The notes beneath the pieces are model-generated. The model had not been told where the DNA came from and searched no databases. It worked only from the letters and a program-made list of their open reading frames with translations. This document shows positions 3,808 through 36,436 of a stretch of DNA of 64,000 bases, piece after piece (position 1 is the stretch's first letter; each line of letters begins with the position of its first letter). A program made the translations under genes and the position numbers. The stretch is from a virus (Duplodnaviria > Caudoviricetes): IMG/VR virus record IMGVR_UViG_3300025018_000138, positions 10,816 to 74,815 of that record, one strand, 5' to 3'.

Positions 3808-5223
3808 TTATGTTAATTTAAAATATTCTTTATTTAAAAATAATATTGCCCACATATTAGAACGATTATGGTGTTGTGATACTATTTTAATGTATGCTAT
3901 TAATTTTGAATTTGGTGTATAAATGTTAATCGTATCTTTCGGATGTACTAATACCATTAACATAGCGTCTTCTTCCGAAACTTTTCTTTCAATCCAAAGT
4001 TTAATTTTAATTTCTGGTCTAATAAAATCTTCGTCAAATGGAGTCTTATCTATTTTATATCCATAACCAATAAATTCACTATCATTTATTATAGTAGTAG
4101 TATCATCATCATTACCTTTCATTTTATATGATTTTAAAAAGTTTTTAACTTGTTCCATAAATTTTTTATAACTTTTGGATTTATATTTTTCTATATCCAT
4201 TTGTATATTATCTAAATATGGTGGTGGCAAACTATATAACAATGTTAAATCATTCTTATCTTCTTCATAACTTACTTCATATTTATCATCTATATAATCC
4301 CATACTGTTAATTTATCATCAGTTAATAAATCCGCAATCTTATTTGTTATAGACCCGATTATAATATCAGTAAAACCATATAACTTTTCTATAACGATTG
4401 TATCTTTGATTTGACGAACGATAAGTCTTACGATAGGTGTGAAGTCATGTGTCTTACCACAAACGTCTCTGAAGGGTTTCTTGTAGCCAATAAGTATGAT
4501 TTTAGAATTGTTATCAAAGACATTCGATAACAGTTTAGTTGCATGAGTGAATTTATAATTTGGTGCATTTAAATTATATACATTTTGACATGAATCAAAA
4601 AATGGAGATACAGACATATACATAATGTCATCTGGCTTTGATGTAACTCTAAATGTCACTTTCTCTTTATTTATGTTGACCAATGACATCACTTGATTGA
4701 AAAAATGCTGATGTAAATTTTGTATCGTGTTATAGTTATCCAATAATTCTTTAGCTACTTGTTTAAGCGAAGCGTATTTATAGAAATCGGCAACTGATTT
4801 TAAGAATTTATACAATGATGTTTTGGTCTGATTTAAATAGGAATCCCTCGTAATCAATGGGTATTGTTTATCAAACATATTTAATAATGTTATTTTTTTG
4901 TCACTGCTATATTCGACAAGAGTTTCTAACTGTGGAAATGATATCGTCATTTCAGCTACTAATCTATGTAATTTTCTATATTCTTCCCATAATGTTTTAA
5001 ACGTATGATTATCATTAGTTTCAATATTCTTTAGTATTAGCCCTAAAATATCATTAGTTGATAATTCCCTAAGTGTGATAGGATAATCTCCATCGGGTAA
5101 AGCAGGTATTTTATTCTGAGCTACATTTTGATTTAATATTTCTTCACCCCATACCTTTTTAACTAATGGATGTAACTCAGAATTTAATTCGTCTTTTAAA
5201 GATTCTAATAATAATTGTATCAT
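3808..5223 (-). CDS. hypothetical protein
   Basis: 471-aa ORF, no recognised motif. Confidence 0.65.
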   Translation of the reverse strand: MIQLLLESLKDELNSELHPLVKKVWGEEILNQNVAQNKIPALPDGDYPITLRELSTNDILGLILKNIETNDNHTFKTLWEEYRKLHRLVAEMTISFPQLETLVEYSSDKKITLLNMFDKQYPLITRDSYLNQTKTSLYKFLKSVADFYKYASLKQVAKELLDNYNTIQNLHQHFFNQVMSLVNINKEKVTFRVTSKPDDIMYMSVSPFFDSCQNVYNLNAPNYKFTHATKLLSNVFDNNSKIILIGYKKPFRDVCGKTHDFTPIVRLIVRQIKDTIVIEKLYGFTDIIIGSITNKIADLLTDDKLTVWDYIDDKYEVSYEEDKNDLTLLYSLPPPYLDNIQMDIEKYKSKSYKKFMEQVKNFLKSYKMKGNDDDTTTIINDSEFIGYGYKIDKTPFDEDFIRPEIKIKLWIERKVSEEDAMLMVLVHPKDTINIYTPNSKLIAYIKIVSQHHNRSNMWAILFLNKEYFKLT

Positions 5224-5474: not shown

Positions 5475-5502
5475 AAAAAATGAGATATTACCTATCTCAT
5501 TT
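5475..5502 (-). terminator. Rho-independent terminator
   Basis: AAATGAGATA/TATCTCATTT stem followed by T-run on minus strand, just after 5514 stop. Confidence 0.6.
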
Positions 5503-5513
5503 ATGTTTATATA

Positions 5514-5984
5514 TTAATTATATGCTTCTTTTAGAATAACATCATAATGGTTGGATTTAGTAACTCTCCCATCTGAATGGTGTGATATGTATGATAATGG
5601 AAAATCGTGTTTTAACTTATCAACTCTGTCTTTCCAACGATGATTTTGTAACGTATGATATTTGTAATATAATAAAGCAGTCCAATAAGAATCTGGTTCA
5701 TCAGTATGTAAAAATATACAAAATTGTTTTTTAAATAATACCAATGAAAACAAAGGTGCATATTCATATCTATAATCTATATCTGACCATTTTGTTTTCC
5801 ACCCTAATCCCACAAAATCAATTCCAAACCAAACTTTGGCTTTAAATGTATAATGAGTTTTGTCATCTGACAATATCATTTTTCGAGGATAAAAATAAGG
5901 TGTACCCATTTCTATATTTCCAAAATAAAATTTTAATTTGGGTCTTTTAAAAGGAGAAAAAAAAGCATGAAATAAAATATTCAT
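5514..5984 (-). CDS. hypothetical phage protein
   Basis: 156-aa ORF followed by terminator. Confidence 0.6.
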   Translation of the reverse strand: MNILFHAFFSPFKRPKLKFYFGNIEMGTPYFYPRKMILSDDKTHYTFKAKVWFGIDFVGLGWKTKWSDIDYRYEYAPLFSLVLFKKQFCIFLHTDEPDSYWTALLYYKYHTLQNHRWKDRVDKLKHDFPLSYISHHSDGRVTKSNHYDVILKEAYN

Positions 5985-6699: not shown

Positions 6700-8149
6700 T
6701 ATATGGTCATGTAAAAGATGATAAGAATTTATGTTAAATAATAGAAATTATATGAAACTTTTTCTATTATTTCAAATAATATACTAAATTTATTTTAAAA
6801 AACAAAATTTATTTATAATTAAAGTCTATAAGACCAAAATTAATAAATGCAACTATCGGAACGACATATTATCAAAGAAGACCATCTTTATTTTAAAGAA
6901 TGTGATAACATTACTTTTAAATCAAAGAACCTTTATAATTCCTGTCTATATACCATAAGACAACCATTTATAAATGATAATGTCAATGTTTCATTCGATT
7001 TGCATCATTTAATTAAAAACCATGAAGCATATAAAGAACTTCCTGCTAAAGTATCTTCGAGTGTTATTCTAATGGTTCAAAAGAATTTTAAATCTTATTT
7101 TAAAGCTACTTCTGCGTTTTACAAAACACCAGAAAAATTTAAAGGGAAACCCAAATTACCTTATTATTTAAACAAATTAGATGGTAGATTTGTCGCTTCA
7201 TACACGAATCAAGCTATTTCCAAAATTTCTTTCAATAAATACAAAAAGATTAAACTATCTAATACAAATATCGAATTAAATACAAAAATTAAACAATTTA
7301 CTGATATAGATTGTGTTAGAATTGTACCTAAACTTGGATATTTTGTTATTGAAGTTATTTATACTATCCCCGATACTCCTTTATTGGAAGATAATAACAA
7401 CTATTTAGGAATAGATTTGGGAATAAATAACTTAGCTACATTATCATCAAATGAAAAAAGTTTTAAACCAATAATAATCAATGGCAAACCATTAAAGTCG
7501 ATAAACCAATTTTATAATAAAAAGTTATCAAAGATAAAATCGACATTAGAAGTAAGAAATAAAAAAAGTAAAAGTAAAAAACTTTATAAGTTAACTAATA
7601 AAAGACATTTTAAAGTGGAAACTTATTTACATAAAGCAAGCAAAGAAATTGTTAAATTAGCAAAAAACAATAACATAAATACAATAATCGTTGGAAAAAA
7701 CGAACAATGGAAACAAAATATTAACATCGGTAAAGTTAATAATCAAAAATTTGTTTCCATTCCTCATAGTAGATTTATAGAAATGATACAATATAAATGC
7801 GAAAAAGAGGGTTTAAACTTCAAAATAAATGAAGAAAGTTATACATCAAAAGCATCATTCTTAGATTTAGATGAAATTCCTACTTATAATTCAAAAAATA
7901 AGGAAACTTATAATTTCTCAGGATATAGAAAATATCGTGGATTATATAAATCAAAAATAACAGGAAAACAGATAAATGCTGATGTGAATGGAAGTTATAA
8001 TATAATAAGAAAAGCAATTCCAAATGTCTTTAAAAACGATGGAATAGAGGGTGTAGGAGTACACCCAATAATCAAACAAATAAGTTTTAATTAATTTTTT
8101 TGTTCCATTATAAAAATTTACCATAGATTTCTATGATAAGTTATACTCT
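6700..8149 (+). mobile_element. IS200/IS605-superfamily element carrying tnpB only (IS1341-like); left boundary approximate
   Basis: tnpB on the strand opposite to its neighbours; 38-nt downstream end sequence recurs at 23743-23780; no tnpA nearby. Confidence 0.65.
6847..8094 (+). CDS. tnpB: RNA-guided endonuclease TnpB
   Basis: RuvC-I GIDLG, RuvC-II NEESYTSK, RuvC-III NADVNGSYNI; N-terminal HTH-like region; Zn finger replaced by ASFLD. Confidence 0.93.
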   Translation: MQLSERHIIKEDHLYFKECDNITFKSKNLYNSCLYTIRQPFINDNVNVSFDLHHLIKNHEAYKELPAKVSSSVILMVQKNFKSYFKATSAFYKTPEKFKGKPKLPYYLNKLDGRFVASYTNQAISKISFNKYKKIKLSNTNIELNTKIKQFTDIDCVRIVPKLGYFVIEVIYTIPDTPLLEDNNNYLGIDLGINNLATLSSNEKSFKPIIINGKPLKSINQFYNKKLSKIKSTLEVRNKKSKSKKLYKLTNKRHFKVETYLHKASKEIVKLAKNNNINTIIVGKNEQWKQNINIGKVNNQKFVSIPHSRFIEMIQYKCEKEGLNFKINEESYTSKASFLDLDEIPTYNSKNKETYNFSGYRKYRGLYKSKITGKQINADVNGSYNIIRKAIPNVFKNDGIEGVGVHPIIKQISFN

Positions 8150-21972: not shown

Positions 21973-22614
21973 ATGATACTAATCGAACAACAGATTGATT
22001 CACAATCATTAGCTATGTTACTAAAATGTCGAACTCAATTGATTAATTTAATTAATTCATTCAAACCTTATTGTAATAATTATTTTTATATTTATGGTGG
22101 GTTTATACGAGATTTAATATCTGGGTTTAAACCAGTTGATATTGATATTAATATTGCCGACAGTAATGATAAAAATCGTGTTATTAAGTACCTATCCAAA
22201 ACACATGATATTTCATATGAATCAGCTTGGGTAACTCGTTACAAGTCAAAAATGGGTTTACCAAAAACAATGTATGATATTGCATCCAATTTTAAAACAC
22301 CAACGGAATTTATATCAAATTCCGATTTTTCAAATAATGCTATATTATTTGATTCCAATTATGATTTGTTTTGTTTGGACTCGACTATATATGCAAATAC
22401 GAATAGAAAATTAATTTTAAAACCAATTGAATCTAATAGTCCTATGATTTTAGCATATAGAGCAGGTAAACTAATTCAAAAAGGGTTTGTATATAAATCC
22501 GAAAATCCTATAGACTTGATTAAAGATATAGAATATCAATTTGAACTATATACAAACCCAATCGATATTTATAAAGTTAATTTATCCATTAACGATAGAA
22601 ATGTATCACGTTGA
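21973..22614 (+). CDS. class II nucleotidyltransferase (poly(A) polymerase/CCA head domain only)
   Basis: YGGFIRD...DIDI and DFSNNAI motifs; 213 aa. Confidence 0.7.
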   Translation: MILIEQQIDSQSLAMLLKCRTQLINLINSFKPYCNNYFYIYGGFIRDLISGFKPVDIDINIADSNDKNRVIKYLSKTHDISYESAWVTRYKSKMGLPKTMYDIASNFKTPTEFISNSDFSNNAILFDSNYDLFCLDSTIYANTNRKLILKPIESNSPMILAYRAGKLIQKGFVYKSENPIDLIKDIEYQFELYTNPIDIYKVNLSINDRNVSR

Positions 22615-23624
22615 AAATTTCCAATTTCAGCACCTACTAATGTTTTAGGATAATCAACTCCTAATGCTTTGTACAACAATTGTACAATACTTACGAAAGA
22701 TTCATCCAATTTACATAACATGTTAACATTGTTCATAACAACTCGTCTATTTTTCCAAATAAATAATTTTGACTCGTTTATATCATCTACATAACTATCA
22801 ATCATAATATAGTTACCATAAAATTTAGATACTTGAGCAACTTCTTTTTTGATTGGTAATGAATCAATGAATGAATCATCAAACATACTAAATAAAAACG
22901 CAAATGAAGCATCAACATCATGGTCAATACACTCTTGAACTTCATCAATTCCCAACGATACGTCATCGATGAAACCTACATTATATAATAATACTTTTGG
23001 GATGAAATTAAATGTAGTAATACATTTAGCAAATTCATCCAAGATTCTTTCCATTGATAATACTTTATCCAATTTAACAGTATCAAGAATTTTTTCAATT
23101 GCCAATTTAGTACTTGCATCAAATGTCAAACCATATTTAACATAGAATCTAAAGGCTCTAATCACCCGTAAATAATCTTCTTCAAATCTGTGATACGGAT
23201 TACCAACAGTTTTTAAAATATTATTTTCCAAATCTGATTGTCCATCAAACCAATCTAATATTTTTGTTCCATCAAAACCCATCGCATTTATTGTAAAATC
23301 TCTACGTTGAGCATCTTCATAAAATGAATTGGTGAATTCTACTGTTGCACGTCTACCATCAGTACCCACATCTTTTCTAAATGTAGTATGTTCTACATGA
23401 ACCCCGTGAATTATAAATGTGACCGTTCCATGCTCTATACCAGTATCATATGATGAAAAAGGTAATAAATCTTTAATTTCCAATGGTGTATATGCTGATG
23501 CTACATCGATATCATGTGCTTCACGATTGAGTAACATATCCCTTACACAACCACCAACAGCAATTACTTCGGGTGCATATTGATGAATGGCATGTAAAAT
23601 TAATTCGATATTCGGGGTTGTCAT
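22569..23624 (-). CDS. cca: CCA-adding tRNA nucleotidyltransferase
   Basis: VGGCVRD, DIDV, RRDFTINAM, FEEDYLRVIRAFRF. Confidence 0.92.
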   Translation of the reverse strand: MTTPNIELILHAIHQYAPEVIAVGGCVRDMLLNREAHDIDVASAYTPLEIKDLLPFSSYDTGIEHGTVTFIIHGVHVEHTTFRKDVGTDGRRATVEFTNSFYEDAQRRDFTINAMGFDGTKILDWFDGQSDLENNILKTVGNPYHRFEEDYLRVIRAFRFYVKYGLTFDASTKLAIEKILDTVKLDKVLSMERILDEFAKCITTFNFIPKVLLYNVGFIDDVSLGIDEVQECIDHDVDASFAFLFSMFDDSFIDSLPIKKEVAQVSKFYGNYIMIDSYVDDINESKLFIWKNRRVVMNNVNMLCKLDESFVSIVQLLYKALGVDYPKTLVGAEIGNFQRDTFLSLMDKLTL

Positions 23625-23881: not shown

Positions 23882-24427
23882 TTAAAAGAATAGATACGTC
23901 TTCCATTCATCAGGTATCTCCCCCGAATAAGATTTCATTAACATTAACCAATGTGGTCTATAAGGTTGTGGAATAGGTCTACCCCATTCTTCATCAGTCA
24001 AACAATCTTTCTCATTATTGCATTTTTTACATGCAGTAACTAAATTGTCCCATGAATCTTTTCCACCCCTCGCTTTTGGTATAACATGGTCTAATGTTAA
24101 TTCTTTTCTATTTTTATCGAACCCACAATAAACACACGCATGGTTATCACGTTTCAAAATGTTATCACGATTTAATGGAACCGCTTTGTTATGAACATTA
24201 ACCCATTTATCGATTAATATAATTGAGGGTTTTTTGTATTGTAAATTGGGATTGATTGTTTTAAAAAACACATCATGTTCATATACTATACGTGCATTAC
24301 CTTTATACCAAATAGCAAAGGCACGTTCTGTTCGTATGATTTGCATAGGCATATATGCGGAATTAAGAACCAAACATTTATTGACCATTTCGGTTGAAGT
24401 GGTTAAGTTCTTTACATTAGTTACCAT
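23882..24427 (-). CDS. HNH endonuclease (McrA/HNH_5-like)
   Basis: RDNHACVYCG, LTLDHVIPKARGG, NLVTACKKCNNEK. Confidence 0.9.
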   Translation of the reverse strand: MVTNVKNLTTSTEMVNKCLVLNSAYMPMQIIRTERAFAIWYKGNARIVYEHDVFFKTINPNLQYKKPSIILIDKWVNVHNKAVPLNRDNILKRDNHACVYCGFDKNRKELTLDHVIPKARGGKDSWDNLVTACKKCNNEKDCLTDEEWGRPIPQPYRPHWLMLMKSYSGEIPDEWKTYLFF

Positions 24428-25741: not shown

Positions 25742-27415
25742 TTAAATAACAATCGCTTTAATATCGTTGAGTACTGCTTTTGGGTCAAACTCAACTTTTT
25801 TAATCAGTTCATAGATATCTTGTGTATATCCTTCGAGAGAAAACACACGTGGGTGTTTACTATTAAACATTTCTGTTGGATAACCACAAACATTTATACT
25901 ATAAACATAGGTATTACCATTCAGTTTTTCATATTCTTTAAAAGAATTTATTACCGAATCTTTACCTTGCATATCACTAATGATAAATACTCTATCATAT
26001 CGTCCTTTTAATGATGGAAAGATAGTATCAAACGCAGTACCATAACCAACAGACCCTTGTTTTGATGCAATTACTTTTTTAATAGTATTTACAGAATCCA
26101 AAGGATTTATATTAATAGGTTGAGTATAGTTTGCAAAATGATATACATCTGCATTTGTAGCTTTCGCTAAAGTTGATGCAACCAATGATGCTTTTTCGAT
26201 TGCTGATTTACTACCTTGTTTTTTATTTGCTAAAGTAATCAAACTTGTCATAGAACCTGAGCTATCTAATACTACAGCAGTTTTACCTGTGAAGTAATCT
26301 TCTAAATTTGGTATTGATAATTCATATGCTTTATTTAATGCAGTTAATATTGAACCTAAATCACTTGGGCTATGTTCTTGTAACAGAAACTCCAATGCCA
26401 AATCTATTTGGTGTGGAAACACTAATGATTTTTTGATAAATTCTGGTTCAATTAGTAAAGCAGATACTTTTTCTTTTAATGTACTATGTCCAAGTTTAAT
26501 GATATTGTTTAAGTTTCTTAACAATGCCAAGTACCCAATTTTTTTAGTATCAATTAGCTCTACAAAATTTTCACCCTTTAAATCATCCAATTCAACTTTA
26601 GCTTGCTCAACACTTAATTCACCTGATGCCACTTTTGCAGAAACATCTTGACCCGATTTGGTGTTTTTATCTTCAACAGTATTGAACTGTTTTAATAAAC
26701 CTAACGTTAATGCAAACAATGTTGGGATAGTTACTTCTCCATCATCACTAATATTTCTTGTTAGTTTATGTGCTTGTTCTTCATATAATACATGCCCTTT
26801 GACTGCTTTAAGTAATTTAGCTTTAGGTACAGATACTACTCCTTGAATTTCGGTTTCCCGTGGGTGTACTAACTTGACAATATTCAATAAAGAAATACTA
26901 GAAGTTTTCAATTGGTATTTAGCCAATTGGTATTTATCAGCATTTTCAATCACAGATTTGAATCCACGTTTGATAGCATTTGATAATTTCTTACCGTTAT
27001 TTAATGCCATATATGCACCTGCGATTTCCATCATATCATCTAAACGATATACAACTCCACCGCGATTTTCACCACGAACACGTTTAGTGAAGAAATGAGT
27101 TCCTAATTCGGTACCACTAAGATATCTAGCTAATACTGCTGATGCAAAATGTGTTGTTGCACGTTGTCCTACGACTGAACGTACATAAACAATTGCTTTG
27201 GCTACCAATTCTTTATCACCAATTTTATCAATTAATGATAATATTCGTGCTTCTCTTGTTTCACTTGTTTCATAAAATGTATTATCTACACCTGTAGCAA
27301 GAATTCCTACTAATTCTACGATTGGGTCTTTTGCAAAACCGTTTCCGTTTTCATATGTAGTTACATTTGGTTCTGCTTTAGTAGCAGATACTTGGTGTGA
27401 GTTATATTTTCCCAT
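25742..27415 (-). CDS. rsr: Ro60/TROVE-domain RNA-binding protein with vWA domain
   Basis: N-terminal ENGNGF, YLALLRNLNNI, FPHQ, MIDAS VLDSSGSMT, C-terminal vWA. Confidence 0.92.
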   Translation of the reverse strand: MGKYNSHQVSATKAEPNVTTYENGNGFAKDPIVELVGILATGVDNTFYETSETREARILSLIDKIGDKELVAKAIVYVRSVVGQRATTHFASAVLARYLSGTELGTHFFTKRVRGENRGGVVYRLDDMMEIAGAYMALNNGKKLSNAIKRGFKSVIENADKYQLAKYQLKTSSISLLNIVKLVHPRETEIQGVVSVPKAKLLKAVKGHVLYEEQAHKLTRNISDDGEVTIPTLFALTLGLLKQFNTVEDKNTKSGQDVSAKVASGELSVEQAKVELDDLKGENFVELIDTKKIGYLALLRNLNNIIKLGHSTLKEKVSALLIEPEFIKKSLVFPHQIDLALEFLLQEHSPSDLGSILTALNKAYELSIPNLEDYFTGKTAVVLDSSGSMTSLITLANKKQGSKSAIEKASLVASTLAKATNADVYHFANYTQPININPLDSVNTIKKVIASKQGSVGYGTAFDTIFPSLKGRYDRVFIISDMQGKDSVINSFKEYEKLNGNTYVYSINVCGYPTEMFNSKHPRVFSLEGYTQDIYELIKKVEFDPKAVLNDIKAIVI

Positions 27416-27580
27416 TGTTTGCTATCCTTTCGATATTATTAGTTGATTGGAAGAATTATAATGTTATAAAATGATGTTGAATATTATCAACATATTTGAG
27501 TTATTTGTTTAATATATTAAACAATTTCTAAAAAGTCAAATGATTGTCGTATTTTTACTATTTGAAAAAAAAATATTTTT

Positions 27581-27740
27581 GGAGAATTTTGTGTAACAGT
27601 TTTACAGGTTCATCCCTCTGCTTTTTTTTATAATGTATATTTATAATTTGATACCTTTGCGGTGTCTACAATTATAAACAGTTGATTTTTAATCATTGTT
27701 TTGTTTTTTGTTTTACGAAGTACCTGTTATACCGCTACCA
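27581..27740 (-). ncRNA. Y-RNA-like element 1 (no tRNA-like domain)
   Basis: shared 5' TAGC..TAACAG-GTACTTCG and 3' CTGTTA..TTCTCC ends. Confidence 0.6.
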
Positions 27741-27754
27741 AAAAAAAATAAAAT

Positions 27755-27827
27755 TTTCATCAAAAGGATTTGAGCCTTTATTTTATCTCCGTAGAAGGGA
27801 GTTGTTCTACCATTGAACTATGATGAA
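27755..27827 (-). tRNA. degenerate tRNA, anticodon TCT (Arg-like)
   Basis: acceptor TTCATCA/TGATGAA, CTCC-CTTCTAC-GGAG, T-loop CTCAAAT. Confidence 0.5.
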
Positions 27828-27832
27828 AATTG

Positions 27833-27905
27833 TACTCCTACAAGGAATCGAACCTTGATTTTTCTCCGTAGAAGGGAGATATTTTACCATTAAAATATAA
27901 GGAAA
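27833..27905 (-). tRNA. degenerate tRNA, anticodon TCT (Arg-like)
   Basis: TCTCC-CTTCTAC-GGAGA, good T arm, imperfect acceptor. Confidence 0.5.
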
Positions 27906-27910
27906 TATTG

Positions 27911-27983
27911 TACGTCTGATGGGGTTCGAACCCATGACTTATAGTTTAAAAGACTATTACTCTACCAACTGAGTTACAGACGT
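27911..27983 (-). tRNA. tRNA-Lys(TTT)
   Basis: ATAGT-CTTTTAA-ACTAT. Confidence 0.92.
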
Positions 27984-27994
27984 ATATTTTATTG

Positions 27995-28065
27995 TAGGAG
28001 TACAAGTAATCGAAACTTGATATATTGGATGTAAACCAATCGCTTTACCATTAAGCTATACTCCC
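27995..28065 (-). tRNA. tRNA-Val(TAC)
   Basis: ATTGG-TTTACAT-CCAAT. Confidence 0.88.
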
Positions 28066-28070
28066 AAGTC

Positions 28071-28101
28071 GAAAACTCAGAACCACATATTCTGAGTTTT
28101 C
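28071..28101. terminator. hairpin GAAAACTCAGAA/TTCTGAGTTTTC
   Basis: 12-bp perfect inverted repeat. Confidence 0.5.
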
Positions 28102-28513
28102 ATGTAGTATTTATTCGATTTGATTTAATTGTATATTTTTCATCTTAGATTATTTATGTGATAATTGACCAAGAGTCTAAGATTAGTATTGATAAATTTT
28201 TTTTGATATATTTTTTGACATATATTCTTATTTATTTTATCTACTAAGTATAAATCTGAGCCATTCTATTTACTTGGAATAGATTACTTCGTCAGAAAGA
28301 AGTATCACCAAAATGCTTATATACCAATCGCATATGGTTTAAAGATTAACTCATGTGTTTATGCAGAAACCATGTGCATCTTTTGGCACATGTAGAGTTG
28401 TGATTTCAGTCACTCTAAAATCTGAAATTTCATCTGTATGCTTTCTTAAATACTAGTCACTGAAGACCATCGATACTATGTGTTCACGATTTTAATAATA
28501 CAAATTACTTTTG

Positions 28514-28585
28514 CACTACGGGGGAATTTCGAAATCCCATGACAAGTTTTGGAGACCTGCATATTAGCCTTTATATGACCGCAGT
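28514..28585 (-). tRNA. tRNA-Trp(CCA)
   Basis: CAGGT-CTCCAAA-ACTTG; G73. Confidence 0.85.
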
Positions 28586-28801
28586 ATAAATGATACTTTT
28601 AGTATAATCAAAACATATCAGTATCCCACATGAACTGTTTTTCATTTACAAGGAGTAGCAATTTACTACACATCTACCTTTTTAGTACATTAACGTGTAC
28701 TACTTCGGAACAGTCCATAACGTTGATGTACAAAACGCTAACTCTTATCGTAAGTCAGAAACGCCATTTTAGCTATAGTTCAAATGGTAACACATTGGAT
28801 G

Positions 28802-28873
28802 TATCGCATACGAGAATCGAACTCGTGTCTCTACCTTGAAAGGGTAATGACTTAACCATTTGTCCAATGCGAC
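28802..28873 (-). tRNA. tRNA-Glu(TTC)
   Basis: TTACC-CTTTCAA-GGTAG. Confidence 0.9.
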
Positions 28874-28886
28874 ATATAAAAATATA

Positions 28887-29010
28887 AAGAAATATCAAAA
28901 CAGAATTTTTAGCGCTCTACCATTGAGCTACATGTCCCCATAAGGGACATGGTTGGACTCGAACCAACAACCACTCGTTTCAATACGATGAAACTGTTTT
29001 TGTCACTATT
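28887..29010 (-). ncRNA. YrlA-type Y RNA (element 2; circularly permuted tRNA mimic)
   Basis: order T arm, then closed acceptor hairpin CATGTCCC/GGGACATG, then D arm GCTC-AATGGTA-GAGC, inside the outer AAACAG/CTGTTT stem. Confidence 0.85.
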
Positions 29011-29020
29011 ATATTTTTTG

Positions 29021-29092
29021 CTCCCCAAGTAGGACTCGAACCTACAACCTATTGGTTAACAGCCAATTACTCTGCCATTGAGTTATTGAGGA
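29021..29092 (-). tRNA. tRNA-Asn(GTT)
   Basis: ATTGG-CTGTTAA-CCAAT. Confidence 0.92.
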
Positions 29093-29101
29093 ATATATAT
29101 G

Positions 29102-29174
29102 CGATGTTGATGGGATTCAAACCCACATAATCTTCGCTGACAACGAAGTGCATTAGTCATTATGCTACAACATC
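29102..29174 (-). tRNA. tRNA-Asp(GTC)
   Basis: CTTCG-TTGTCAG-CGAAG. Confidence 0.85.
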
Positions 29175-29810
29175 ATTATGTTCATGTTTTTCGTAGAATT
29201 TTATCCATTTTCTTATAGAATTATCTGAAACTCCATATTTTCTACCTGTAGCACTAAATCCTAATGATTTTGTGTCTTGTATTAATATTTCATATGGTGG
29301 TCTGTTTCTTTTTCTATCTTTTTTTAATATTTCAATATTTATTTTTTTTTCTTTGAATGGGTTATTATTTTCATAATCATTTAAATAATTTATTTTAAAT
29401 TTTTCTTCATTTACTCTAATTGCTGTTTTATTTTCAATATCAGATGTAGATAAGAAAAAAATACCACCGCTTTTTACTACAATAATAATATAATCTATTT
29501 TATTTTTATCAAAATATTTTCGTGTATTATTATATTTATTACCACCGCTAGTTGCAAGTGTTACTATCCAATTATTATTTTTATAAACACTTGTTGATTT
29601 GACTTGAACTTTTAGTAAGCAATTATCTTTTTCAATAATAAAATCATACGATTGATTTTCGTTTAATGGTTTAGATACTGTGTATCCTTCTTTTATTAAG
29701 AAAGCTAAAGCGTATGCTTCACCAACATTACCTTTATCTTTTTGGGTTTTACAATTTTCAAATATATTCATGATATTAATTATAATATATTTTATATTTT
29801 TGAACCCCAA
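29160..29810 (-). CDS. free-standing PD-(D/E)XK homing endonuclease (I-Ssp6803I/PDDEXK_5-like) with C-terminal HTH
   Basis: KGNVGE, YDFIIEKD, KVQVKS; C-terminal GRKYGVSDNSIRKW. Confidence 0.85.
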   Translation of the reverse strand: MGFKNIKYIIINIMNIFENCKTQKDKGNVGEAYALAFLIKEGYTVSKPLNENQSYDFIIEKDNCLLKVQVKSTSVYKNNNWIVTLATSGGNKYNNTRKYFDKNKIDYIIIVVKSGGIFFLSTSDIENKTAIRVNEEKFKINYLNDYENNNPFKEKKINIEILKKDRKRNRPPYEILIQDTKSLGFSATGRKYGVSDNSIRKWIKFYEKHEHNDVVA

Positions 29811-29832
29811 AAATAAAATAAAATAATTTTTG

Positions 29833-29919
29833 TGCGGTTCGAAAGATTCGAACTTTACGCCACCAACCCCACTTAGTTTTTGACAACAGTTTTACAGACT
29901 GCCGTGGGGAACGAACCGC
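29833..29919 (-). ncRNA. rearranged tRNA-like RNA, anticodon GTA (Tyr)
   Basis: acceptor GCGGTTC/GAACCGC, CCCCAC/GTGGGG stem enclosing GCAGT-CTGTAAA-ACTGT, TTGG loop, T arm TTCGAAT. Confidence 0.75.
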
Positions 29920-29929
29920 AAATAAAAAC

Positions 29930-30072
29930 AAAGAAATTTATAATCAGTTGACCAACATTTCAACCCCCGTACTAATACTAATTATATTAACATTAGTACG
30001 GGGGGCAGGAATTGAACCTACGTTATAGCAAAGCATGATTTTGTACGAAGTATCTGATTTATTACGCTATTG
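29930..30072 (-). ncRNA. YrlA-type Y RNA (element 3; extended 13-bp acceptor hairpin)
   Basis: AATCAG-ATACTTCG; T arm GTAGG-TTCAATT-CCTGC; CCCCCGTACTAAT hairpin; D-like TTGA/TCAA. Confidence 0.75.
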
Positions 30073-30078
30073 TTTTTG

Positions 30079-30150
30079 TGCAGGATAAGGGATTCGAACC
30101 CTTATAGCAAGTGTGGAAAACTTGAAGATTAACCATTATCGTAATCCTGC
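30079..30150 (-). tRNA. tRNA-Gly(TCC)
   Basis: CAAGT-TTTCCAC-ACTTG. Confidence 0.85.
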
Positions 30151-30162
30151 AAAGAATTAATC

Positions 30163-30238
30163 AAAGAAATTTTAAATGAGCGTGTTTGTAGATGTTATGT
30201 TGTAGATAATTTACGATGAAACTCATTAAGTGCTATTG
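30163..30238 (-). ncRNA. Y-RNA-like element 4 (minimal, 76 nt)
   Basis: TAGC..AATGAG-TTTCATCG ... CTCATT..TTTCTTT. Confidence 0.6.
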
Positions 30239-30246
30239 ATTAAGTG

Positions 30247-30321
30247 TACCCATAGATGGATTTGAACCATCGCATAACTGCGTATCAGACAGTTGCCTTA
30301 ACCAAGCTTGGCTATATGGGC
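30247..30321 (-). tRNA. tRNA-Ile(GAT)
   Basis: ACTGT-CTGATAC-GCAGT. Confidence 0.9.
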
Positions 30322-30334
30322 ATAATAAAATAAA

Positions 30335-30454
30335 AGGAGAAATATAAAAAGTGTGTTCCTCTTACGAGGTCGAGTGGAATTGAACCACTGAAGTTTATTT
30401 TCAAGATAAATGCCCAACCATTGAGCTACGATGTAACACTTTTAAACGCTACCT
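30335..30454 (-). ncRNA. Y-RNA-like element 5 containing a non-permuted tRNA body (anticodon TGA)
   Basis: AAAGTGT-TACATCG, then D arm, anticodon arm, T arm, GNRA hairpin, ACACTTT..TTTCTCC. Confidence 0.75.
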
Positions 30455-30460
30455 TTTTTG

Positions 30461-30533
30461 AGCTTTCATTGGGAATCGAACCCACTTCCTCGCTTTACAA
30501 GAGCGAACATCATCCAATAAATGTTTTGAAAGC
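30461..30533 (-). tRNA. tRNA-Thr(TGT)
   Basis: TCGCT-CTTGTAA-AGCGA. Confidence 0.85.
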
Positions 30534-30937
30534 TATTTTCTAGTTGTTCTAGAAGATTTTCTATTATTTATATTTTTGTACGTTTTGGTTAAAGAGTGAC
30601 AATTCGGACATAATAATCTTAGATTTTCTCGCAAATTATTTTTAGCATCTCCATCTATATGGTCAATCTCTAATGGTATATTACCCGTAAATTCATTTAT
30701 TTGTGACCAACCACATAATGAACATTTATTATCATTTTCTTCTAATAAAAATTTTCTTATCCAATTAGGAATGGTCAATCCATTACCACGTAGATAATTT
30801 TTACCATTTAACCACATATTAATACGTTGATTCATTTGAAATTCTTGTTGACATTTATTATTACAAAAAATGTTATTATTAACAATTTCATTATTACAAA
30901 ATTTACAAGTTTTTTCCTTTTTTTCTCTTTTTCTCAT
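30533..30937 (-). CDS. free-standing HNH homing endonuclease
   Basis: CSLCGW, LEIDHIDG, NLRLLCPNCHS; N-terminal Cys-rich zinc motif. Confidence 0.9.
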   Translation of the reverse strand: MRKREKKEKTCKFCNNEIVNNNIFCNNKCQQEFQMNQRINMWLNGKNYLRGNGLTIPNWIRKFLLEENDNKCSLCGWSQINEFTGNIPLEIDHIDGDAKNNLRENLRLLCPNCHSLTKTYKNINNRKSSRTTRK

Positions 30938-35134: not shown

Positions 35135-36436
35135 TTATAATCGTATAAAAACTTTATTTGACGCTCTTGTTATAGCAACATATAATAACTGATTTCTTTC
35201 TTTAATGACGCTATTTCTTGCGATATTAGGCATATCAATAAACACATTAGCAAATGTACTACCTTGTGACTTATGTACGGTTAGGGAGTGAGAATACGAA
35301 ATATCATTAAAGAATTTTTTTACTTTATAATGAGTTTTCCAATCTTTTTTATCAGCAGTTTTTCTAAGAAAATCTTTTAAATCATCTTCATATGCTTCAT
35401 GAATAACTCGAATAAATTTTTCAGTTATTGTTCCCACTAATCGTATACCTAATTCATAGTAATCTAATTTACAAGGGTTACTAAGAGTTTTAATTTTAAT
35501 TGAAGTAACTATTGCTTCTTCGGAATTTGGTAATACTATATTCATACCAATTTCATCAAGACACGCTTCATTCGCAATAATTTTATCACCAATGACAAAT
35601 TTATCATCTGATTTTACGAACAATCCACGTACTTTAGTGTTCCATGTGGAAACATTGACATTGGTATATGCTAATATCCTACAAAAATCTTCATCACGAC
35701 TATAATCATCAGATAAAAAATATTCATTTAAAGTAGATGTAAATTGTCTCCTATCTAATAGGATTACAGAATCGGATTCATGTTTTTCAACTAAGTCTTC
35801 AAAATCGATTCGCTTATCCAAGTTTTCTCTAATATCGGTAGCAAGTCTACCAATTTCATTCCCATAACGAACTACATTAGTCAATGTTTTTGTAGTTTTT
35901 TCATTACCTTGTAATGCCAATGATTCAATTTCTTTAATAGGTGGTAATTGTGCAGGGTCTCCAACAAACAGAATCTTAATGGTATAACCGCTAACCGCTT
36001 TTGTTATATAATCTTCATACAACACTTTATTAATCATAGATGCTTCATCTATAATAACAAAATTATAATCGTATAACGACTGGTCTACGGTTTTATCAGG
36101 TATATATGTTTCTTCACCCGTTTTATAATCTACAAAAGGCTTGATTGCCAAATGTCCATGTATAGTTTTAGTCTCTACATTTGCCAACCCCGATTCTTCC
36201 AATTTTTTACGAATCACCTTTACTGCTTTATTAGTTGGTGCAGAGATGGTCAAGTCAGCACGATTTACACCATAAACTAATGGTCTGTGATGTTGTACAT
36301 ATTCTGCTAAACTAATGAGAAGCGTAGTTTTTCCCGTTCCTGCAAATCCTTTTAGTACATAAAATTGGTCATTCGGTGAAGTCACCCATTTGATAATATC
36401 ATCAAATGCTTCACGTTGTTCGTCTGTTAATGTCAT
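35135..36436 (-). CDS. SF1B DNA helicase (Dda/RecD-like)
   Basis: GFAGTGKT, IIDEASM, GDPAQLPP, HKSQGST, YVAITRA. Confidence 0.92.
   Translation of the reverse strand: MTLTDEQREAFDDIIKWVTSPNDQFYVLKGFAGTGKTTLLISLAEYVQHHRPLVYGVNRADLTISAPTNKAVKVIRKKLEESGLANVETKTIHGHLAIKPFVDYKTGEETYIPDKTVDQSLYDYNFVIIDEASMINKVLYEDYITKAVSGYTIKILFVGDPAQLPPIKEIESLALQGNEKTTKTLTNVVRYGNEIGRLATDIRENLDKRIDFEDLVEKHESDSVILLDRRQFTSTLNEYFLSDDYSRDEDFCRILAYTNVNVSTWNTKVRGLFVKSDDKFVIGDKIIANEACLDEIGMNIVLPNSEEAIVTSIKIKTLSNPCKLDYYELGIRLVGTITEKFIRVIHEAYEDDLKDFLRKTADKKDWKTHYKVKKFFNDISYSHSLTVHKSQGSTFANVFIDMPNIARNSVIKERNQLLYVAITRASNKVFIRL

Follow-up and report, generated by a model that had tools for sequence, protein, structure and literature searches.

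Phage Y-RNA-like elements with a shared terminal handle and varied heads upstream of a Ro60-like gene

We have analyzed a stretch of 64,000 nucleotides (nt) of tailed phage DNA (positions 10,816 to 74,815 of the IMG/VR virus record IMGVR_UViG_3300025018_000138, hereafter the window), in which a gene coding for a Ro60-like protein (rsr) is preceded on its own strand by five small elements, E1 to E5, set among tRNA genes. All five are closed by the same terminal module, that we will call the handle, and this module is a conserved and covarying RNA structure that reappears beside the Ro60 genes of many other phages, where it encloses interiors (heads) of very different kinds. We read E1-E5 as phage Y RNAs, the partners of the phage's own Ro60 (Rsr), belonging to a previously uncatalogued and phage-restricted family, and would give this reading a probability of about 0.78. 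The particles of Ro60 and Y RNA found in animals have been studied in connection with autoimmunity, and others have been studied from a few bacteria and a single Thermus phage.

Structure and covariation of the handle

Both strands of the window were searched with the regular expression TAG[CT]-N2-7-stem6-NTWCWTCG-TA, completed further downstream by the stem's exact reverse complement. Five places matched, at 30451, 30235, 30069, 29008 and 27737 of the minus strand, each with TTCT 6-7 nt past the 3' stem, and neither strand had another complete site. They correspond to the five elements, with the stems listed, of an original prediction that had been made from the letters alone, and they also lie where it had placed them, upstream of rsr on the same strand (0.16-3 kb away, E1 being 157 nt ahead of the start codon). 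The extent of the module had to be revised. Its 6-bp inner stem (P1) is present, but pairing continues past a bulge or a mismatch to give 8-9 bp, and directly outside TAGY and TTCT there is an outer stem of 6-8 bp (P0) with a different sequence in every copy of the window. The elements are therefore longer, and the whole module makes up a terminal helix, with imperfections, of some 20-25 bp. As for TAGY and TTCT, taken at first for its ends, the covariation indicates that the U is a bulge and that AG pairs with CU. From the outside to the inside, the handle consists of P0, the invariant bulged U, two pairs (R-Y and G-C), a small internal loop (UAA on the 5' strand and A-R-N-U-U-U on the 3' strand), P1 with its 8-9 bp and, leading over to the head, a single-strand junction motif, U-A-C-W-U-C-G, that is nearly invariant.

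Two covariance models were used. R1 was built from three short relatives of equal length (alignment A2) and contains no sequence from the window; R2 was built from 47 R1 matches, 46 of them from relatives. A MAFFT alignment of five short members (A1) had been tried as the seed and was replaced by the three equal-length members, given that its 3' halves were misaligned. With R1 there were 92 matches at E<10, spread over 62 sources, and most loci had several. Of the 92, 89 were on the rsr strand; E4 was found among them by this model of relatives only. R2 recovered all five elements of the window (scores in Table 1), which bears out the terminal-module model suggested with the prediction. The low score of E1 is due to its insert of 116 nt, all the invariant positions being present. 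A loose pattern scan of the 67 loci retrieved by way of Ro60 showed the same module with different stems, and the handle is now known in more than 230 copies in phage contigs.

The stems covary, as predicted. Compensatory changes affected 12 of 12 pairs in a first test, and 15 of 16 when a 16-pair structure was evaluated over the 92 aligned copies. In these copies 89.6% of the cells were paired, against 42-50% when the partners were slid by 1-3 columns, and none of 500 shuffles reached the observed covariation score or the observed share of paired cells. The replacements around the bulge illustrate the pattern: position 8 is G in 80 copies and A in 12, with C in 80 and U in 12 at its partner 352, position 10 is A in 68 and G in 24, with U in 68 and C in 24 at its partner 351, and the pair after the bulge is A-U in 67 copies and has switched to G-C in 23. 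Eight positions (U9, G11, U35, C37, U39, C40, G41 and C350) are invariant throughout. The module is thus a conserved RNA structure whose pairing is maintained while its sequence changes.

Two conserved stretches, AGUAA in the handle and UUACU in the junction motif, are complementary to each other (columns 10-16 and 34-38 of alignment A4). RNAalifold suggested an alternative 5' hairpin formed by these two stretches, and we rejected it as the main fold because the variable columns fit the long-stem model: changes at positions 8, 10 and 12 break the hairpin and agree with the stem. The complementarity might be due to a folding intermediate or to an interaction in trans. Separately, the handle model gave a weak match on the opposite strand of the window, at 35495-35584 (+), with 17.4 bits, E 0.18 and several broken pairs, that is probably a false positive.

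Linkage to rsr and to tRNA genes

The neighbouring gene had been predicted to code for Ro60, and we agree that its product is Ro60-like by all the sequence comparisons made. It matches Pfam TROVE at 31.6 bits (partial match, cut-off 23), it aligns from residue 14 to 550 with the Ro60 of Thermus phage phiLo in a phmmer search of the PDB (E 1.5e-19; 9KOP/9L5Y), and its DxSxS metal site in the vWA domain, LDSSGSM, is aligned with VDVSGSM of the phiLo protein. Viral relatives of the product, with 43-52% identity, were found in 67 loci. The phage GenBank collection had no close DNA relative of the window, only tRNA matches, and its protein relatives did not exceed 35% identity.

As the first loci had been chosen through the Ro60 protein, the linkage was tested in three other ways. 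The ten records of 100-434 kb on which R2 was run include several complete ones; every match in them at E<=0.01 was located ~0-20 kb from rsr and on its strand, often directly abutting the gene. When loci were fetched by the RNA pattern alone, 61 out of 78 were positive for the model, with 145 matches; rsr lay within the fetched 1-15 kb in 25 of these 61 (co-oriented in 25/25) and in 0/17 of the model-negative ones. Two nearly complete records that matched the pattern and had no rsr contained no credible module. The 5' pattern also occurs in bacterial genomes, at no fewer than 80 loci, none of which was matched by the model among those listed, and we read them as chance matches. For this reason the model appears specific and the family looks restricted to phages, within the matches listed in the bacterial scan. 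Among deposited genomes, the handle is present in the Crassvirales phage cr111_1, in phage csAssE-Sib and in a 635-kb uncultured phage, in all three just upstream of a Ro60-like gene. The covarying module, together with whole-genome matches that appear only around the Ro60 gene and on the same strand, supports the proposal of Y-RNA-like elements served by Ro60.

One of the relatives (L009) has a GOLLD RNA directly upstream of its Ro60 gene (5491-5917; Rfam, 238.9 bits), which places GOLLD in the same RNA island as the Y-like array; a group I intron (4387-4586) is found 1 kb further up.

The second association in the window is with a dense array of tRNA genes on the minus strand (the window has 25 tRNAs). 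Following this strand, the order is tRNA-Thr, E5, tRNA-Ile, E4, tRNA-Gly, E3, an odd tRNA-like gene, an open reading frame (ORF) of the PD-(D/E)XK type, tRNA-Asp, tRNA-Asn, E2, tRNA-Glu, further tRNAs, tRNA-Arg, E1 and rsr. Each element fills a gap between tRNAs (between tRNA-Arg and rsr in the case of E1), with its P0 at 2-10 nt from the neighbouring tRNA ends, and CCA is not encoded by the four flanking tRNA genes whose 3' ends were read (Thr, Ile, Gly and Asn). Among the relatives, the copies that abut a tRNA are 16%, against 2.5% at random placement, and tandem arrays of modules are commoner.

Table 1. Coordinates in the window of the Y-like elements, their paired parts and the neighbouring genes
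Feature	Position	Strand	Remarks
E1, Y-like RNA	27573..27745	(-)	Directly upstream of rsr; regular expression and R2 (13.8 bits, E 1.3)
E1 P0, UUUUUGG/CCAAAAA	27744-27738 with 27582-27576	(-)	
E1 UAGC	27737-27734	(-)	
E1 inner P1	27729-27724 with 27599-27594	(-)	
E1 UUCU	27586-27583	(-)	
E1 junction motif	27723-27716	(-)	GUACUUCG
E2, Y-like RNA	28878..29016	(-)	YrlA-type permuted tRNA mimic; R2 40.6 bits
E2 P0, AAAUAUAA/UUAUAUUU	29016-29009 with 28887-28880	(-)	
E2 inner P1	28999-28994 with 28903-28898	(-)	
E2 junction motif	28993-28986	(-)	UUUCAUCG
E3, Y-like RNA	29922..30077	(-)	Permuted tRNA mimic; R2 30.6 bits
E3 P0, AAAAACAA/UUGUUUUU	30077-30070 with 29931-29924	(-)	
E3 inner P1	30059-30054 with 29947-29942	(-)	
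E3 junction motif	30053-30046	(-)	AUACUUCG
E4, short Y-like RNA	30155..30243	(-)	R2 47.3 bits, E 9e-9; R1 29.4 bits
E4 P0, UUAAUCAA/UUGAUUAA	30243-30236 with 30164-30157	(-)	
E4 inner P1	30227-30222 with 30180-30175	(-)	
E4 junction motif	30221-30214	(-)	UUUCAUCG
E5, Y-like RNA	30328..30459	(-)	Holds normal-order tRNA body; R2 42.7 bits
E5 P0, AAAAGG/CCUUUU	30457-30452 with 30337-30332	(-)	
E5 inner P1	30442-30437 with 30353-30348	(-)	
rsr, Ro60-like protein, 557 aa	25742..27415	(-)	TROVE/HEAT ring and vWA domain with DxSxS MIDAS motif
tRNA-Arg(UCU)	27754..27828	(-)	Ends 10 nt before E1 P0; ARAGORN and Rfam
tRNA-Glu	28801..28873	(-)	Starts 8 nt after E2 P0
tRNA-Asn	29020..29092	(-)	No encoded CCA; ends 5 nt before E2 P0
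tRNA-Gly	30078..30150	(-)	No encoded CCA; between E4 and E3, spacers 8 and 2 nt
tRNA-Ile	30246..30321	(-)	No encoded CCA; between E5 and E4, spacers 10 and 4 nt
tRNA-Thr	30460..30533	(-)	No encoded CCA; ends 2 nt before E5 P0
CCA-adding-enzyme-like nucleotidyltransferase	22569..23624	(-)	Pfam PolyA_pol head domain, 95.2 bits

The window belongs to a 74.8-kb record with an estimated completeness of 36%, for which the label of "jumbo" phage used at first is plausible, and its sequence is also present in aquifer and cold-spring metagenomes (DNA sequencing runs). A metallophosphatase and an HD protein are encoded near rsr, and no RNA ligase or kinase was detected among the 28 neighbouring ORFs scanned. 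Within the tRNA/Y-RNA array there are PD-(D/E)XK and HNH endonuclease-like ORFs, at 29160-29810 (-), 30533-30937 (-) and 23882-24427 (-), that look like homing endonucleases. A gene of the TnpB / IS605 OrfB type is located at 6847-8094 (+), with Pfam OrfB_IS605 and Cas12f1-like TNB domains. The odd tRNA-like gene of the array, at 29833-29919 (-), has an 8-bp acceptor stem, a T arm and the loop CUGUAAA (GUA, Tyr), and is called neither by ARAGORN nor by Rfam. Thirteen of its nucleotides, CUGUAAAACUGUU at 29897-29885, recur in E1 at 27607-27595, probably by chance at this genome size.

Heads, possible function and alternative explanations

The heads, measured past UCG, have 12-250 nt in the 92 copies and reach ~316 nt in further loci, with several unrelated architectures, in line with the modular scaffold with swappable interiors that had been proposed. 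Short A-rich loops (12-42 nt) make up 55 of the 92, E4 included. The remaining classes are heads of ~58 nt made of a hairpin, an anticodon-like arm and a T arm; normal-order tRNA bodies of 75-80 nt, ten of which ARAGORN calls as tRNAs in relatives; permuted mimics of the YrlA type, in the order T arm, closed acceptor and D arm, some with a fourth, anticodon-like arm; and unassigned domains of 110-316 nt without Rfam match (the heads of 200-316 nt in L058, L066 and L037 were compared and gave none).

In the window, the interiors had been described as two permuted tRNA mimics, one intact tRNA body and two empty ones. The mimics are E2 and E3. The former folds into a T arm, an acceptor hairpin closed by UUAU and a D arm, and the latter keeps the T-then-D order with a 19-bp closed hairpin (fold z-score -4.7). 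E5 is the tRNA body, with a D arm, an anticodon arm (loop CUUGAAA), a T arm and an extra CCUC-GUAA-GAGG hairpin. E4, with 33 nt past UCG (31 nt past the -TA of the first description), can count as empty, but E1 cannot, its interior being 116 AU-rich nt with a predicted hairpin (fold z-score -4.0). The suggested comparison with Rfam YrlA (RF02553) was positive only in part: E2 reaches 43.3 bits (E 3.5e-7) where the gathering score is 69, and E1, E3, E4 and E5 have no match at E<=10. No Rfam family of any kind matched E1, E3 or E4 at that threshold.

Concerning the function, we infer that the handle would be the docking site for Ro60, through either the bulged helix or UACWUCG. The literal recognition motifs, that is the animal GGUCCGA (bulged helix), the bacterial GNCGAAN0-1G and the CGAA of phiLo, are absent from the window; an invariant UCG followed by A, U or C and a bulged helix are present in the handle and may be their equivalent. 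The variable head would recruit a second partner, for which host PNPase or tRNA-handling enzymes are candidates, by analogy with the complexes of Ro60, Y RNA and PNPase already described. In the window phage the Y-like RNAs might be parts of one long tRNA transcript, their 5' end arising by an RNase Z-type cut after the upstream tRNA and their 3' end by RNase P at the downstream one. This route is suggested by the short spacers, the lack of encoded CCA and the presence of a CCA-adding-like enzyme.

A number of results weigh against the reading of E1-E5 as Y RNAs of this kind. The canonical Ro60 motif GNCGAAN0-1G is absent as such, the window having UCGUA, and the YrlA model gave the sub-threshold and null results just mentioned. 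The handle model, although it was also run with its filters off, found nothing near two more distant Ro60 genes, those of Thermus phage phiLo and Vibrio phage Va1. Since rsr and tRNA arrays are co-located, the linkage could be in part to the tRNA region, and with only 16% of the copies abutting a tRNA in relatives, release by tRNA enzymes cannot be the general route. Finally, in an aquifer metatranscriptome, the only RNA library with any part of the stretch, an exact contig of 357 nt corresponds to window 28144-28500; no other part of 27400-30600 is represented there, and the contig lies outside all five elements. A promoter scan found 44 promoter-like sites against 43.7 expected, and no U-tract terminators were found at the five elements.

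The segment 28144-28500 falls within a 447-nt gap between tRNA-Trp and tRNA-Val of the minus-strand array. It has no ORF, Rfam match or handle, and it may be another non-coding RNA of the array.

The handle could be explained without Ro60 if the P0/P1 duplex were a leader-trailer maturation stem, like the RNase III stems flanking rRNAs, that excises or stabilises a cargo, Ro60 being unrelated or a mere neighbour. The duplex does flank very different cargoes, including cloverleaf bodies that ARAGORN calls tRNAs, and the elements are found within polycistronic tRNA arrays. We regard this as improbable nonetheless. Heads of only 12-42 nt, as in 55 copies, leave little if anything to be excised, eight invariant positions and two conserved motifs are not required of an RNase III-type stem, and whole genomes that have tRNAs elsewhere show matches only around rsr and on its strand.

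It is considerably less probable that the tRNA-like members (E5 and its relatives) are real tRNA precursors, cut by RNase P and RNase Z, CCA-tailed and used in translation, with the handle as a regulated precursor form. ARAGORN calls ten embedded tRNAs in relatives, in GenBank records of crAss-type phages such bodies are entered as tRNA-Gln, tRNA-Tyr and tRNA-Lys, and the YrlA of M. smegmatis is cut by RNase P and given CCA (PMC4201824). However, E5 lacks an acceptor stem, in whose place only UCG/CGA (3 bp) can pair, and therefore cannot be an ordinary tRNA; Rfam tRNA matches it only over model positions 5-66 (44.5 bits, at 30370-30431), and ARAGORN makes no tRNA call for it. In the relatives Gln, Lys and stop-reading bodies have one and the same acceptor, CGUUUUU/AAAAACA, whose first pair is a C-A mismatch (one Gly body has a similar acceptor), by which acceptor identity would be erased, and copies otherwise near-identical differ in the anticodon (UUG in L033, UUA in L040). 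The shared A/U-rich acceptor and the anticodon difference argue for mimicry and against decoding. Besides, most members of the family have no tRNA body at all.

In two of the deposited genomes, annotated tRNAs lie inside handle modules just upstream of the Ro60-like gene. They are a tRNA-Gln in cr111_1 (MT774387; L195:6917-6992), and a tRNA-Tyr and a tRNA-Lys in csAssE-Sib (OR575929; L196:7666-7738 and 7811-7884). Judging from this position, the three are probably Y-RNA heads and not ordinary tRNAs. As a separate observation, a tRNA with the anticodon CUA (ARAGORN "Pyl") is found in L026, L028, L030, L032, L042, L047, L056, L060, L065, L066, L070, L071 and L073, and the module body at L040:3918-3992 carries UUA, which suggests stop-codon suppression or recoding in those phages.

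To an action in cis, as attenuators, terminators or stabilisers of rsr or of the tRNA operon, instead of as free RNAs, we give the same slight probability as to the tRNA precursors. The elements share the strand of rsr, most of them precede it, and E1 is close to the start codon, but a genome has several copies, which can be as far as 20 kb from rsr and in some cases downstream of it, U-tract terminators are missing at the elements, and full tRNA-mimic heads have no obvious role in cis. That the elements are repetitive DNA (miniature inverted-repeat or homing-related) devoid of RNA function, as the HNH and PD-(D/E)XK endonuclease-like ORFs interspersed in the array might suggest, is hardly credible, because stems that covary through full sequence turnover with pairing kept, G-U pairs included, and 89 of 92 matches on one strand indicate selection on RNA and not on DNA.

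The reading of E1-E5 as phage Y RNAs admits an extension that we consider doubtful. One universal Ro60 docking handle might serve as a cassette from crAss-type to 400-kb phages, which would have placed in it entire tRNA bodies, tRNAs with their parts re-ordered and large folded RNAs. During infection the Ro60 particles would then expose tRNA look-alikes that cannot be charged, and these would act as decoys or sensors for the tRNA-cutting nucleases of host defence, or would steer host PNPase or tRNA enzymes. The tRNAs typically cut by anticodon nucleases are those for Gln, Lys and Glu. Anticodons of these three kinds are present in 7 of 14 tRNA-like bodies, not all of the copies being independent.

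Relation to known Y RNAs

RNA partners of Ro60 have been hard to find by sequence, and the handle marks hundreds of candidate phage Y RNAs, from crAss-type gut phages to phages of 400 kb. One docking stem with many unrelated heads makes the idea of the Y RNA as an adaptor directly testable, some of the deposited phage tRNA annotations inside handles are probably not ordinary tRNAs, and the tRNA-Y-tRNA-Y layout suggests a simple route by which tRNA-processing enzymes would yield both kinds of RNA from one transcript.

Known Y RNAs are modular, in that a stem which binds Ro60 is combined with a part which binds an effector; their genes lie near rsr, a species has at least two kinds of them (Chen et al. 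2014, PMC4201824), and they often mimic tRNA (PMC4201824). Ro60 genes of phages were also known (PMC7824862), and a Listeria phage has abundant RNAs upstream of an Rsr-like gene (PMC12282133). The YrlA and YrlB RNAs of bacteria and mycobacteriophages (RF02553; PMC4201824) share with the elements described here their location on the rsr strand, a few kb at most from the gene, the number of two or more per genome, and a stem formed by both RNA ends combined with a variable second module. The permuted mimic of YrlA (T arm, closed acceptor hairpin and D arm) has its counterpart in E2 and E3 only, and the short loop-type partner YrlB resembles E4. They differ in the handle, which here consists of a bulged-U helix, a UAA loop and UACWUCG instead of GNCGAAN0-1G; in the YrlA model, for which E2 is the sole scorer and stays below threshold; in the five or more copies; and in the heads, which here include normal-order tRNA bodies, four-arm permuted tRNAs and domains of 110-316 nt. 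Within the scans made, the handle family was found in phages only.

The closest solved homologue is the Ro60 of phiLo (9KOP, 9L5Y), that binds two Y-like RNAs, Yrl1 and Yrl2, encoded just upstream of its gene, and joins host PNPase (PMC12135203). There too a stem of both ends flanks a loop, in this case with a CGAA-type motif, and the UCG(W)A of the handle has its parallel in GNCGAA/CGAA, the motif of the Y RNAs of bacteria and of phiLo. However, the proteins are only 24% identical, the handle model has no match near the phiLo gene, and the phiLo RNAs are two, with no tRNA-like heads reported. Yrn1 of Deinococcus radiodurans (Chen et al. 2014) is similar to E5 in that the D- and T-like arms of its tRNA-like part follow the normal order and are separated by a stem-loop, but it keeps the animal-type Ro60 helix on both strands, while E5 has a true anticodon-like arm and a different handle. 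With the Y RNAs of animals the handle shares the terminal helix, the one-nucleotide bulge in the 5' strand (a single pyrimidine in animals), two pairs and an internal loop; the sequences are not similar, and the likeness is one of architecture only, compared from the descriptions in PMC4201824 and PMC12135203.

No paper describing the handle family was found in the literature searched. Modular Y RNAs being already established (PMC4201824), the family of the window extends a known principle and does not introduce a new one. What is new is a distinct and well-defined handle that Rfam 15 does not include, the wide range of its heads and the number of its copies. New too are its distribution, which extends from crAss-type phages to phages of 400 kb, and, in the window phage, the strict interleaving with tRNAs.

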